Assembly (NCBI GenBank): GCA_951406725.2
Contig: OX597821.1
Span: 52,886,001 to 52,950,000, forward strand
Source: Octopus vulgaris
Taxonomy: Eukaryota
DNA: 64,000 bases
Direction: 5' to 3'
A model generated the notes under the pieces. The model did no database searches and had not been told where the DNA came from. It worked only from the letters and a program-made list of their open reading frames with translations. The position numbers and the translations under genes are program-made. Positions 1-35,867 of this stretch are shown one piece after another (position 1 is the first letter of the stretch; each line of letters opens with the position of its first letter).

Positions 1-91
1 CAACGATGTAAGTTAAAAAGTTAAACCAAATTGTTGACATTATTAAACAAATCATTAATTCATTAATTAAACTGCAAACTGAAAAACCAAC

Positions 92-806
92 CTGCATAGC
101 GTAGCCCGACGCTTTCCTTTAAGACATGTTTGGCATCTTGAGTATGTTCGAGCCAGATATGCTCCTCGTATCGAAATCTTTTCGCTGTCATATGTTTAGC
201 AATTGCACTGGAAGCCAAATAACAAAAATTAGGTGAAATACTGTCATATCCTTTATATTGGCTGATGAGTTTGGCCCGATCCCATTTATGGCCCTTAAGG
301 ATCTGTAAAAAGTAAAATCCCAATGTGTCAAATGTAATTCCCATCCGAGTAAGCGTTTTATATTCATCCTTGGGTTCAGTTTTTGCAGCAAAATCGTGCG
401 CCATTGCCCCCGGGGTGACGACGGGTAGATTCCAGTACACTGCATAACGTGCCACCGGTGCAAGGCTGTAGTCGCAAACAGGGCCGAAAAATACATTCAC
501 TGTTTTGTTACTGTAGAAATCGAAAGCTCTGATGGGTCCAAGCTGGCTACTGCAACGAGAATCTGCATATAAAGCCACGATCTCAACATCCGATGGTAAG
601 ATGGTGTGTCTGACTTTTTCTAGTGCCACTGTTATTGCTGGCTGGGTGCGATCCAAAGAATAGAGTCTACTATTATCACTCGGAATAATTACAGCCATAT
701 ACACTGTTTGGACGGCATGATCCAATTTTGCCAAACTTAGAAGGATGCCGAAGATAGTAAGACAACTATAGCATGTTGTTTTCGTTGACATTTTATGAAC
801 TTTCAT
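92..806 (-). CDS. First coding exon of an atrial natriuretic peptide receptor / receptor guanylyl cyclase-like protein (signal peptide plus N-terminal part of the ANF-receptor ligand-binding domain); gene continues beyond the window start
   Basis: 247-aa ORF with a hydrophobic signal peptide (CLTIFGILLSLA) and motifs YADSRC, FFGPVCDYSLAPVARYAVYWNLPVVTPG and EYKTLTR, which resemble vertebrate NPR1/NPR3 ([28 protein letters not shown]). Splice donor GCAG|GTTGGT at 92/91, phase 1. Start is the ATG at 806 or 791. Confidence 0.88.
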
Positions 807-29341: not shown

Positions 29342-29444
29342 TTAATTAGAGACAAAACCACTATTATGCAAATCAAACAAAGGAAGACTTAATCCAATAC
29401 ATAAAAAATTTTATATAAATTAAATAAAAATAAAATTAAATTCG

Positions 29445-29490
29445 CCACTACAATTGTTTCGTGTCTCTTCTAAAGACATTCATCAGGTGG
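29445..29490 (-). ncRNA. Minimal type I hammerhead ribozyme (Penelope-like) in a ~240-bp insert within (TA)n
   Basis: Minus strand: CCAC-CTGATGA-ATGTCTTTAGAAGAGACAC-GAAA-CAATTG-TA-GTGG. Canonical core, palindromic helix III ACAATTGT, predicted cleavage after GUA. Confidence 0.75.
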
Positions 29491-29564
29491 TTTTCAGATC
29501 TTCTATTCAATTTTAAGTTATGAATCTGATTTTTCCCTGTAAATTTGGATTTATTCCCTAATAT

Positions 29565-32046: not shown

Positions 32047-32082
<36 letters not shown>

Positions 32083-32303
32083 ATCAATATAGGGTGGCAA
32101 AAAAATTTTGTAGAATTCTTTTGCCACCAGCGGCCTAGTAGGAAAAAATTAAATAGTCATAAACTATTTTTACGTTCAACATCACAATCAAGGAACGGCC
32201 ATAATAGGCCATTCACCCACTAGAAATAACAGCCAAAAGCTTTAACCGCAAAATAACATTAATACCGTAAACCAGGAGAAAATTGAAAAACTTTTACCCT
32301 GTA

Positions 32304-32410
32304 ATTTCTTAGACGATGCACCGTTTCATCTACCGTTTAATGGTAAACTAACCTGATTAAATTAAAGCAAGCCAATCCACCATAGGCCCTTAGACTCATC
32401 AGTAAGAAAT
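32304..32410 (-). ncRNA. Type I hammerhead ribozyme (inverted copy)
   Basis: Reverse complement of the plus-strand motif; predicted cut after the C opposite position 32312. Confidence 0.85.
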
Positions 32411-33162
32411 AGCCAAATCGGAACAGATATTTTTCACGAGGCATTCCTCTTGCTACCTCGGCAATATCTGACCTAAAATTTTCAAATCGTCGCACTCGCG
32501 CCAAATTTATCGGCAGCAAATAAATATAAGCCACCGATTCCTTTACGGAACTAACCAGAAAATTCATAATTAATCAATATAGGTGGCAAAAAAATTTTGT
32601 AGAATTCTTTTGCCACCAGCGGCCTAGTAGGAAAAAATTAAATAGTCATAAACTATTTTTACGTTCAACATCACAATCAAGGAACGGCCATAATAGGCCA
32701 TTCACCCACTAGAAATAACAGCCAAAAGCTTTAACCGCAAAATAACATTAATACCGTAAACCAGGAGAAAATTGAAAAATTACAGGGTAAAAGTTTTTCA
32801 ATTTTCTCCTGGTTTACGGTATTAATGTTATTTTGCGGTTAAAGCTTTTGGCTGTTATTTCTAGTGGGTGAATGGCCTATTATGGCCGTTCCTTGATTGT
32901 GATGTTGAACGTAAAAATAGTTTATGACTATTTAATTTTTCCTACTAGGCCGCTGGTGGCAAAAGAATTCTACAAAATTTTTTTGCCACCCTATATTGAT
33001 TAATTATGAATTTTCTGGTTAGTTCCGTAAAGGAATCGGTGGCTTATATTTATTTGCTGCCGATAAATTTGGCGCGAGTGCGACGATTTGAAAATTTTAG
33101 GTCAGATATTGCCGAGGTAGCAAGAGGAATGCCTCGTGAAAAATATCTGTTCCGATTTGGCT

Positions 33163-33269
33163 ATTTCTTACTGATGAGTCTAAGGGCCTATGGTGGATTG
33201 GCTTGATTTAATTTAATCAGGTTAGTTTACCATTAAACGGTAGATGAAACGGTGCATCGTCTAAGAAAT
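33163..33269 (+). ncRNA. Type I hammerhead ribozyme, copy 1
   Basis: ATTTCTTA-CTGATGA-GTCTA[58 nt]TAGAT-GAAA-CGGTGCATCG-TC^TAAGAAAT. Helix I is 8 bp; predicted GUC cleavage after 33261. Confidence 0.88.
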
Positions 33270-33652
33270 TACAGGGTAAAAGTTTTTCAATTTTCTCCTG
33301 GTTTACGGTATTAATGTTATTTTGCGGTTAAAGCTTTTGGCTGTTATTTCTAGTGGGTGAATGGCCTATTATGGCCGTTCCTTGATTGTGATGTTGAACG
33401 TAAAAATAGTTTATGACTATTTAATTTTTTCCTACTAGGCCGCTGGTGGCAAAAGAATTCTACAAAATTTTTTTGCCACCCTATATTGATTAATTATGAA
33501 TTTTCTGGTTAGTTCCGTAAAGGAATCGGTGGCTTATATTTATTTGCTGCCGATAAATTTGGCGCGAGTGCGACGATTTGAAAATTTTAGGTCAGATATT
33601 GCCGAGGTAGCAAGAGGAATGCCTCGTGAAAAATATCTGTTCCGATTTGGCT

Positions 33653-33759
33653 ATTTCTTACTGATGAGTCTAAGGGCCTATGGTGGATTGGCTTGATTTA
33701 ATTTAATCAGGTTAGTTTACCATTAAACGGTAGATGAAACGGTGCATCGTCTAAGAAAT
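33653..33759 (+). ncRNA. Type I hammerhead ribozyme, copy 2
   Basis: Same motif; predicted cut after 33751. Confidence 0.88.
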
Positions 33760-34141
33760 TACAGGGTAAAAGTTTTTCAATTTTCTCCTGGTTTACGGTA
33801 TTAATGTTATTTTGCGGTTAAAGCTTTTGGCTGTTATTTCTAGTGGGTGAATGGCCTATTATGGCCGTTCCTTGATTGTGATGTTGAACGTAAAAATAGT
33901 TTATGACTATTTAATTTTTTCCTACTAGGCCGCTGGTGGCAAAAGAATTCTACAAAATTTTTTTGCCACCCTATATTGATTAATTATGAATTTTCTGGTT
34001 AGTTCCGTAAAGGAATCGGTGGCTTATATTTATTTGCTGCCGATAAATTTGGCGCGAGTGCGACGATTTGAAAATTTTAGGTCAGATATTGCCGAGGTAG
34101 CAAGAGGAATGCCTCGTGAAAAATATCTGTTCGATTTGGCT

Positions 34142-34248
34142 ATTTCTTACTGATGAGTCTAAGGGCCTATGGTGGATTGGTTTGATTTAATTTAATCAGG
34201 TTAGTTTACCATTAAACGGTAGATGAAACGGTGCATCGTCTAAGAAAT
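34142..34248 (+). ncRNA. Type I hammerhead ribozyme, copy 3
   Basis: Same motif with one C>T in the helix II extension; predicted cut after 34240. Confidence 0.88.
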
Positions 34249-34631
34249 TACAGGGTAAAAGTTTTTCAATTTTCTCCTGGTTTACGGTATTAATGTTATT
34301 TTGCGGTTAAAGCTTTTGGCTGTTATTTCTAGTGGGTGAATGGCCTATTATGGCCGTTCCTTGATTGTGATGTTGAACGTAAAAATAGTTTATGACTATT
34401 TAATTTTTTCCTACTAGGCCGCTGGTGGCAAAAGAATTCTACAAAATTTTTTTGCCACCCTATATTGATTAATTATGAATTTTCTGGTTAGTTCCGTAAA
34501 GGAATCGGTGGCTTATATTTATTTGCTGCCGATAAATTTGGCGCGAGTGCGACGATTTGAAAATTTTAGGTCAGATATTGCCGAGGTAGCAAGAGGAATG
34601 CCTCGTGAAAAATATCTGTTCCGATTTGGCT

Positions 34632-34738
34632 ATTTCTTACTGATGAGTCTAAGGGCCTATGGTGGATTGGCTTGATTTAATTTAATCAGGTTAGTTTACC
34701 ATTAAACGGTAGATGAAACGGTGCATCGTCTAAGAAAT
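34632..34738 (+). ncRNA. Type I hammerhead ribozyme, copy 4
   Basis: Same motif; predicted cut after 34730. Confidence 0.88.
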
Positions 34739-35121
34739 TACAGGGTAAAAGTTTTTCAATTTTCTCCTGGTTTACGGTATTAATGTTATTTTGCGGTTAA
34801 AGCTTTTGGCTGTTATTTCTAGTGGGTGAATGGCCTATTATGGCCGTTCCTTGATTGTGATGTTGAACGTAAAAATAGTTTATGACTATTTAATTTTTTC
34901 CTACTAGGCCGCTGGTGGCAAAAGAATTCTACAAAATTTTTTTGCCACCCTATATTGATTAATTATGAATTTTCTGGTTAGTTCCGTAAAGGAATCGGTG
35001 GCTTATATTTATTTGCTGCCGATAAATTTGACGCGAGTGCGACGATTTGAAAATTTTAGGTCAGATATTGCCGAGTTAGCAAGAGGAATGCCTCGTGAAA
35101 AATATCTGTTCCGATTTGGCT

Positions 35122-35228
35122 ATTTCTTACTGATGAGTCTAAGGGTCTATGGTGGATTGGCTTGCTTTAATTTAATCAGGTTAGTTTACCATTAAACGGT
35201 AGATGAAACGGTGCATCGTCTAAGAAAT
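35122..35228 (+). ncRNA. Type I hammerhead ribozyme, copy 5
   Basis: Same motif with two substitutions in the helix II extension; predicted cut after 35220. Confidence 0.88.
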
Positions 35229-35611
35229 TACAGGGTAAAAGTTTTTCAATTTTCTCCTGGTTTACGGTATTAATGTTATTTTGCGGTTAAAGCTTTTGGC
35301 TGTTATTTCTAGTGGGTGAATGGCCTATTATGGCCGTTCCTTGATTGTGATGTTGAACGTAAAAATAGTTTATGACTATTTAATTTTTTCCTACTAGGCC
35401 GCTGGTGGCAAAATAATTCTACAAAATTTTTTTGCCACCCTATATTGATTAATTATGAATTTTCTGGTTAGTTCCGTAAAGGAATCGGTGGCTTATATTT
35501 ATTTGCTGCCGATAAATTTGGCGCGAGTGCGACGATTTGAAAATTTTAGGTCAGATATTGCCGAGGTAGCAAGAGGAATGCCTCGTGAAAAATATCTGTT
35601 CCGATTTGGCT

Positions 35612-35718
35612 ATTTCTTACTGATGAGTCTAAGGGCCTATGGTGGATTGGCTTGATTTAATTTAATCAGGTTAGTTTACCATTAAACGGTAGATGAAACG
35701 GTGCATCGTCTAAGAAAT
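35612..35718 (+). ncRNA. Type I hammerhead ribozyme, copy 6
   Basis: Same motif; predicted cut after 35710. Confidence 0.88.
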
Positions 35719-35867
35719 TACAGGGTAAAAGTTTTTCAATTTTCTCCTGGTTTACGGTATTAATGTTATTTTGCGGTTAAAGCTTTTGGCTGTTATTTCT
35801 AGTGGGTGAATGGCCTATTATGGCCGTTCCTTGATTGTGATGATATATATATATATATATATATATA

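Follow-up and report, generated by a model that had tools for sequence, protein, structure and literature searches.

The window considered here is a 64,000-nt stretch of contig OX597821.1 from Octopus vulgaris, and it contains a non-coding insertion in which the same hammerhead motif occurs seven times, split over two oppositely oriented arms. Positions in the repeated unit are numbered so that +1 is the base following the predicted ribozyme cut. The insertion has these features:

32047..32079: left (TA)n tract, likely target site
32076..35842: the whole insertion, non-coding, two head-to-head arms of 490-nt units
32076..32779, minus strand (ribozyme sense): short arm, about 1.4 units, 704 nt, ending at site B (+236 from the cleavage site)
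32304..32410, minus strand: hammerhead copy in the short arm
32777..32779: inversion junction, where the two arms overlap by 3 nt; their starts, at +5 and +22, lie just past the predicted cut
32777..35842, plus strand: long arm, 6.3 units that are 99% alike with a period of 490, ending at site A (+131/132)
33164..33268, plus strand: type I hammerhead, the studied motif, with a predicted cut between 33261 and 33262, after GUC
33349..33497, plus strand: "tail" domain A-B of one unit, in which a helix surrounds site A (about 33392) and a hairpin; a long GGUG...CACC hairpin (33444-33480) comes next, followed by CUAUAUU at site B (about 33497)
33653-33759, 34142-34248, 34632-34738, 35122-35228, and 35612-35718, plus strand: five more hammerhead copies
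35843..35867: right (AT)n tract, likely target site

No open reading frame of 120 amino acids or more overlaps the element (32076-35842), and the 490-nt unit folds better than 100 of 100 shuffled versions (z -4.81). A non-LTR retrozyme is recognized by tandem, non-coding units that measure about 50-970 nt, two or more of them in succession bearing a type I hammerhead, and this arrangement is found here. The insertion is likely to be a non-autonomous Penelope-like element (PLE), or non-LTR retrozyme.

Two other parts of the window were recorded. At 29440-29494 (minus strand) a second, short hammerhead-like motif lies between two (TA)n tracts; it has CUGAUGA, a short helix II and the palindromic ACAAUUGU, with a cut after GUA, and it likely marks where a further PLE-type element ends. 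The other is an ORF at 63-806 (minus strand), about 31 kb away from the insertion, which starts with a signal-like sequence and contains an ANF_receptor domain (E 2.6e-16); a receptor guanylyl cyclase-like gene likely has its first exon here.

The studied motif is built up as follows, all on the plus strand:

33164-33170 with 33262-33268: stem I, UUUCUUA/UAAGAAA
33171..33177: core CUGAUGA, in which N7 is U, A or C across families and U4 is C in family F4
33178..33245: helix II, 68 nt, consisting of the three parts below
33178-33182 with 33241-33245: basal helix II, GUCUA/UAGAU, 5 bp, with G-U at 10.1-11.1
33183-33189 and 33234-33240: internal loop of helix II
33190-33208 with 33215-33233: G-U-rich hairpin of 19 bp
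33246-33249: GAAA
33249..33260: helix III, ACGGUGCAUCGU, self-complementary; 4 bp and a tetraloop when alone, 12 bp between two copies

The hammerhead motif is real and of type I. The core CUGANGA, the GAAA, and the UH are present in type I order (33164-33268), as an earlier note on this DNA had read from the letters at 33163..33269, and shuffling argues against a chance occurrence, as does the genome match control given below: the motif fold has a z of -3.38 with 0 of 200 shuffles equally stable, and a descriptor fitted to the motif found 0 matches in 20,000 mononucleotide-shuffled units. Self-cleavage at 33261/33262 is a prediction. A conserved GGG is seen beyond stem I.

The same note had described a 68-nt helix II with a long G-U-rich hairpin, and this description stands (33178-33245, hairpin of 19 bp). 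There is no terminal loop at the usual position of loop 2; a conserved CC/UAA internal loop is found. Other details of the early reading need correction. The proposed CC/GG helix does not hold, since GG is present in only one of 13 family representatives, while CC stays, and RNAfold pairs one lone C-G. Helix III is self-complementary as claimed, but the 2-nt loop ascribed to it cannot close, and the monomer forms 4 bp with a UGCA tetraloop. The 10.1-11.1 pair of hammerheads is usually G-C, although not absolutely so, and U-U is known. The window motif has G-U in place of G10.1-C11.1, and this closing pair had been regarded as a defining oddity. Among the 13 representatives the position is A-U in three, G-C in three, G-U in one, and unpaired in six; G-U was accordingly rejected as a family mark, being merely a variant of the subfamily in the window. 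Many copies (six of 13) are without a Watson-Crick pair at 10.1-11.1, and their activity may be lower for it.

The Rfam hammerhead models gave no match at gathering score in the 64-kb window. The motif is therefore hidden from standard models, as had been foreseen, and the long helix II is the likely cause. In the accessible text of PMC4209133, PMC3088659, PMC6765202, and PMC13725137 a "long" helix II means 6-8 bp, while that of PMC8557442 notes half-cores 35-50 nt apart (HHR_half_core) in Naiads. Given helices of the present length, counts based on descriptors (e.g., with the 7-17 nt spacer in the accessible part of PMC8557442) therefore underestimate the number of animal hammerheads.

Conservation and covariation of the motif

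The genome (2.8 Gb, 227 contigs) is rich in microsatellites. A 20-mer covering helix III and the cleavage site has 2,364 genomic matches at two mismatches or fewer, and the reversed control pattern has none. A query with the unit returned 663 first-look candidates, 40 of which were scored, and the matches listed are 95-100% identical. A pattern for sister families gave 469 additional matches, including a 474-nt unit that is about 72% alike. Among the near-identical copies, 117 of 136 (40 loci) are invariant over the motif, and these copies therefore say little about selection.

Covariation, a check suggested by the earlier note, was assessed in 13 representatives of four related families, F1-F4, and the number of independent events is consequently small. 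Altogether 93.4% of the cells are paired, and 10 of 36 pairs display changes on both sides. The covariation score is 0.312, compared to 0.222 for shuffled alignments (0 of 500) and at most 0.105 for slid controls. Paired changes are found in all three helices: four of the seven pairs in stem I, three of five in basal helix II, and two of five in helix III. Basal helix II is under-counted, since pair 20-89 was entered one column off and MAFFT mis-registers part of this helix in F3 and F4. The long hairpin is 92-99% paired and has mostly changed on one side, from G-U to Watson-Crick pairs, with a single both-sided pair. In the eight sister rows that were folded, helix II is always 64-73 nt long, and helix III forms a perfect palindrome in six and has two G-U pairs in the rest. 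Helix III is palindromic in each of the 13 representatives, and in F2 its loop has changed from UGCA to UAUA with the palindrome retained. Judged from these substitutions the long helix II is a selected structure, and its job would most likely be that of a folding or protein-binding module in place of loop 2.

These data also bear on a reading in which the hammerhead is a dead remnant, or passenger, of a PLE terminal repeat, so that uncut RNA moves and the hairpin aids only overall folding. The arms do contain up to six uncut sites, sister families show 10.1-11.1 mismatches and the U4C core change, and ribozyme mutants of a lizard PLE left insertion in vitro unaffected according to the available text of PMC11167929. 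Yet the core is kept at about 72% unit identity, with N7 being the position of the core that varies freely (F4 has C at U4), stems I-III covary, and at three loci described below both arms meet at the predicted cut. A passenger hammerhead is in our view decidedly improbable.

Contigs from public sequencing runs cover the unit, but these runs are not on record as RNA, and strand, ends, and transcription are unreadable from them. In run X17 (organism C) the summed contig depth is about 10^4-10^5 on the unit and about 5 on the unique flank, with A dominant at 10.1; depth is not copy number, and the figure hints at a much larger expansion in a related species.

Folding of single and tandem motifs

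When two copies are placed in one RNA, the computed energy of a double-hammerhead fold is -188.3 kcal/mol and that of two single folds -172.4 kcal/mol, and the double hammerhead is thus favored by 15.9 kcal/mol. The minimum free energy (MFE) structure of the two-copy RNA, at -189.8 kcal/mol, includes a 12-bp helix between the copies. Helix III alone (4 bp and the UGCA tetraloop) contributes -0.2 kcal/mol, and the 12-bp duplex of two copies -17.5 kcal/mol. In the MFE structure of the single motif (-34.2 kcal/mol) the core is paired with helix III. By default the single motif and the monomer circle alike adopt a form in which the core UGAUG is paired with CAUCG, and the core of the circle is thereby sequestered. 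These computations agree with the proposal in the earlier note that tandem copies may cleave as double hammerheads while a monomer or circle is protected. That hammerheads with a palindromic helix III work as dimers, leaving the circle protected, is a published model for animal type I hammerheads (PMC4209133, and likewise PMC6765202, in their accessible text). The folding results suggest that in multimeric transcripts cleavage is likely to proceed mainly through the double hammerhead, and the double change from UGCA to UAUA in F2 is, from the sequences, of use to the dimer only.

The active monomer fold, at -30.3 kcal/mol, lies just 3.9 kcal/mol above the MFE, so monomer cleavage may still take place, and in F2 the active fold is itself the MFE. 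The ribozyme might then be active as a monomer, giving a monomer circle as the template for rolling-circle reverse transcription, with the dimer pairing incidental. Helix III with its 4 bp and tetraloop exceeds the 1-2 bp of the known dimer-dependent motifs described in the accessible text of PMC4209133, eight variants private to a locus are present in every unit there that covers them, and circles of non-LTR retrozymes have been published (PMC7229834, available text). However, the palindrome has been kept even across the loop change in F2, and the fold of both monomer and circle sequesters the core. Furthermore, in L054, L066, and L079 a variant is found in unit 1 of each arm and in no other unit. 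Such variants fit a mixed multimer, while the window, L033, and L072 break register. A circular template would be compatible with the twin priming discussed below, so that only the dimer part is at stake. Cleavage as a monomer, although deserving serious attention, appears doubtful to us, and mainly dimeric cleavage is retained in what follows.

Insertion ends, arms and junctions

Sixty-nine loci were mapped, comprising the window, 38 loci that were top hits, and 30 taken from the pattern matches listed first; they are not a random sample. Locus L006, at a contig end, was excluded from the end counts. Two divergent head-to-head arms are found in 44 of the 69 loci, five of which have one atypical end. 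All of the 39 classifiable two-armed loci have one end near +131 (A) and one near +236 (B) (P=1.8e-12 against 50%), none being A+A or B+B, and the tail of about 105 nt is thus confined to one end in every case. The sister loci L100, L104, and L126 are likewise A+B. The 25 one-armed loci end at B in 17 cases and at A in eight, with a short B stub opposite in three of these eight. An (AT)n tract is found at one end or both in 62 of the 69 loci, and at both ends in 41. The overlap at the junction is 0-5 nt in 29 of the 44 two-armed loci, and most of these 44 junctions join differing unit positions, L054, L079, and L045 being symmetric. The longer arm is the A arm in 15 loci and the B arm in 24.

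The arms of one locus differ at only three of 629 comparisons (20 diagnostic sites, 40 loci), while shuffled arm pairs differ at 37% (minimum 22%), and six locus-private variants are fixed across both arms. Such likeness could also come from gene conversion between the inverted arms.

The 5' starts of the arms were compared with the predicted cut. Fifteen of 111 arm starts fall at +1..+25, where 5.7 would be expected; one of the four starts at +1 in this set, L062, is a degraded copy. A genome-wide pattern for starts at +1 gave 11 matches, of which nine are arm starts at seven loci and two are a deletion and a variant. As run-off controls, the pattern for +91 gave ten matches, eight of them real, and that for -20 one match that was not real. 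The two arms meet at the predicted cut in three loci (L045; L219/220; L225/226). These starts are suggestive of a cleavage footprint, but the evidence is mixed, since the +91 control has eight starts compared to nine at +1.

Inverted repeats can arise as artefacts of long reads, and the units here are 99% alike, as would also be seen in a satellite amplified at the DNA level. Neither of these explanations is credible to any appreciable degree, and both were rejected: copies of the element, each with unique flanks, lie on at least 25 contigs, its ends are fixed and unequal while the junctions vary, the same two-armed build recurs in five or more families, and in contigs from other public runs the unit passes into (AT)n in the same way (loose ends found at 33497 and 33882).

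Our preferred explanation, which we consider probable, is that the hammerhead with the 68-nt helix II belongs to a 490-nt repeat present at hundreds of (AT)n sites in this genome, that it cleaves mainly as a dimer, and that the repeat is inserted by a PLE enzyme with reverse transcriptase (RT) and GIY-YIG domains acting through twin priming. The array would first be transcribed. According to the fold predictions, neighboring palindromic helices III would then pair over 12 bp and the RNA would be cut after GUC slowly or partly, yielding monomers, possibly circles, and uncut multimers. The PLE protein, probably as a dimer, would bind the folded domain with sites A (+131) and B (+236); the A-B tail domain (33349..33497) may thus be the platform for RT binding and initiation. 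As judged from the ends, both strands of an (AT)n tract would be nicked, one priming at A and the other at B. Both cDNAs would run toward the 5' end of the same RNA and stop at variable points, sometimes at an end cut by the ribozyme, before being joined, mostly with 0-5 nt of overlap, into a head-to-head insert. For this last step the ends, junctions, and shared haplotypes are observed, and the chemistry is what we infer from them.

With the same element and PLE partner, the inverted arm might instead derive from fold-back self-priming of one cDNA, or from an antisense template, with the tail difference arising from endonuclease cutting during resolution of the intermediate, as was earlier proposed for PLEs. 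Fold-back is put forward in PMC3846280 and PMC8557442 (available text), it accounts for shared haplotypes, the junctions at L054, L079, and L045 are symmetric, and the arm lengths permit it in 33 of 39 loci. The other six are incompatible with fold-back in either direction, either arm may be the longer one, and different unit positions are joined at most junctions. Two RT start sites have moreover been demonstrated in vitro for a PLE (PMC11167929, available text). Fold-back seems rather unlikely to have produced these arms.

Twin priming is otherwise known from LINE-1, where both target strands prime on one RNA and an inversion results. The second LINE-1 primer anneals internally, at no fixed position, and there is no overlap between the two cDNAs, whereas the two starts of the present element are fixed and its cDNAs cover the same sequence.

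Candidate partners, known systems and other families

A GIY-YIG search of the genome gave 6,136 candidates, of which 150 were scored. They include a young two-ORF PLE family in which a 781-aa RT-endonuclease (EN) frame is intact in 16 of 20 fetched loci. One locus of this kind (L161:244-5460) is Neptune-like, with a 479-aa ORF1, the 781-aa RT-EN frame, and many intact copies; its pLTR contains a seeming hammerhead, read by eye, with a U3-A8 core swap. A related protein matches GIY-YIG and, below the cut-off, RVT_1, and it has the CX4CxxC linker that the accessible text of PMC8557442 ties to Neptune and Nematis. The intact RT and GIY-YIG elements in this genome also end in (AT)n, and in four of four two-armed PLE copies a tail of about 30-35 nt is found at one end only. 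Hammerheads with the U4C core (CCGANGA) occur in several PLE families (L067:2640-2690; L052; L144) as well as in F4. PLEs are thus co-resident with the dispersed retrozyme family, and the mover is likely a borrowed PLE enzyme. No nucleotide likeness between PLE and unit was found in the best 30 of the 6,136 GIY-YIG loci or in 20 longer loci, a sample outside which most PLE families lie. Locus L130 gave a strong match as partner PLE and was rejected, as it is a piece of the element itself.

The element resembles the non-LTR retrozymes (Cervera and de la Pena 2020, PMC7229834; Li et al. 2026, bioRxiv 10.64898/2026.07.22.740005; both from the available text) in having low-GC tandem units without coding capacity, each a few hundred nt long and with one type I hammerhead, dispersed as dimers to multimers, in a genome containing PLEs, from which those retrozymes are proposed to originate and which are the proposed mover. 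It differs from them in its helix II, which is 64-73 nt as opposed to a few bp and a small loop, and in its head-to-head insertions with two fixed ends in (AT)n, of which the available text gives no description; the present element is known from DNA alone. In the available text of Li et al. (2026), one of nine frog retrozyme dimers cleaved in vitro. The link between retrozymes and PLEs rests, in what is available of the same two sources, on co-occurrence and pLTR likeness.

With the EN+ PLEs of Neptune type (PMC3846280, PMC8557442, and PMC11167929, accessible text) the element shares partial tandems, a head-to-head inverted, 5'-truncated copy, a tail at one end, (TA)n targets, and a hammerhead upstream of the ends. 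Unlike these it has no ORF, its tail is about 105 nt and not the reported 30-40 nt, and it has no sequence likeness to the autonomous PLE loci compared. A purified PLE was found to start reverse transcription at two internal sites bounding the tail and to extend both strands (PMC11167929); the PLE was modeled as a dimer, and the available text does not note a strand difference between the start sites. The dimer-cleaving hammerheads of PLEs and repeats (PMC4209133; PMC3088659; Lunse et al. via PMC6765202; accessible text) are, like the present motif, of type I with a palindromic helix III and a predicted double fold, but here helix III is longer (4 bp and a tetraloop) and 10.1-11.1 is variable, whereas it is mostly G-C there.

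The class, the dimer cleavage, and the one-end tail are thus already known, and the new features are the long helix II, the long tail, and the strict pairing of ends. A literature search that covered few subscription papers, with supplements and Repbase outside it, found no helix II of 60-70 nt in animal repeats, no 100-nt tail, and no strict A+B pairing on one haplotype; such families may already be in the lists of PMC8557442 or PMC7229834 or in Repbase. The oddity of the ribozyme is by itself modest, and the stronger part is the support that the end pairing lends to twin priming by PLEs. The origin of inverted PLE copies and of one-sided tails is called open in the accessible text of PMC8557442 and PMC3846280, and the present family, which is young, targets (AT)n, and has strict A+B ends with a single haplotype in each insertion, constitutes direct genomic footprints both on this question and on the retrozyme-PLE link. 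It also offers a small RNA for testing the two.

A long helix II is likewise found in three or four families of unrelated sequence, among them X, Y, and the one at L089; the number is a lower bound, as the covariance model was run on 11 sources. Family X (L181:1659-1753, L187; 1,995 first-look candidates) has a 60-nt helix II in a 583-nt tandem unit. Its ends lie near +193 and +296 and are paired in three of three distinct two-armed loci, and its site B is CACCCTATATT after a GGUG...CACC hairpin, in common with the 490-nt element. Family Y (L053:2960-3490, L204, L136; 1,960 candidates) is two-armed with a helix II of 57-59 nt and has ends near +35 and +153, with two arms in seven of 20 loci, where the query selected for the long end. 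The two ends are 103-118 nt apart in X and Y, and helix II at L089 is 46 nt. No RT or EN match was found within 1.5 kb of 20 loci of each of families X and Y. It may be that several unrelated, recently mobile retrozyme families with a long helix II, comprising thousands of motifs that escape Rfam, have converged on one folded platform with two sites, where a dimeric PLE enzyme starts two cDNAs about 105 nt apart on a single RNA, from both strands of an (AT)n break; this generalization is tentative, and we would stop a little short of calling it probable. Were it true, one step of twin priming would account for the PLE tail as well as the head-to-head inversion, and the 490-nt unit would be a natural substrate with which to rebuild PLE integration in full in vitro.

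Different families often adjoin in shared (AT)n-rich spots (L093, L089, L136, L204, L032), which is expected if each insertion renews its target. Further hammerhead-like motifs with a long helix II, from older or other families, are seen at L069:8418-8517 (plus strand) and L089:8420-8500 (minus strand).
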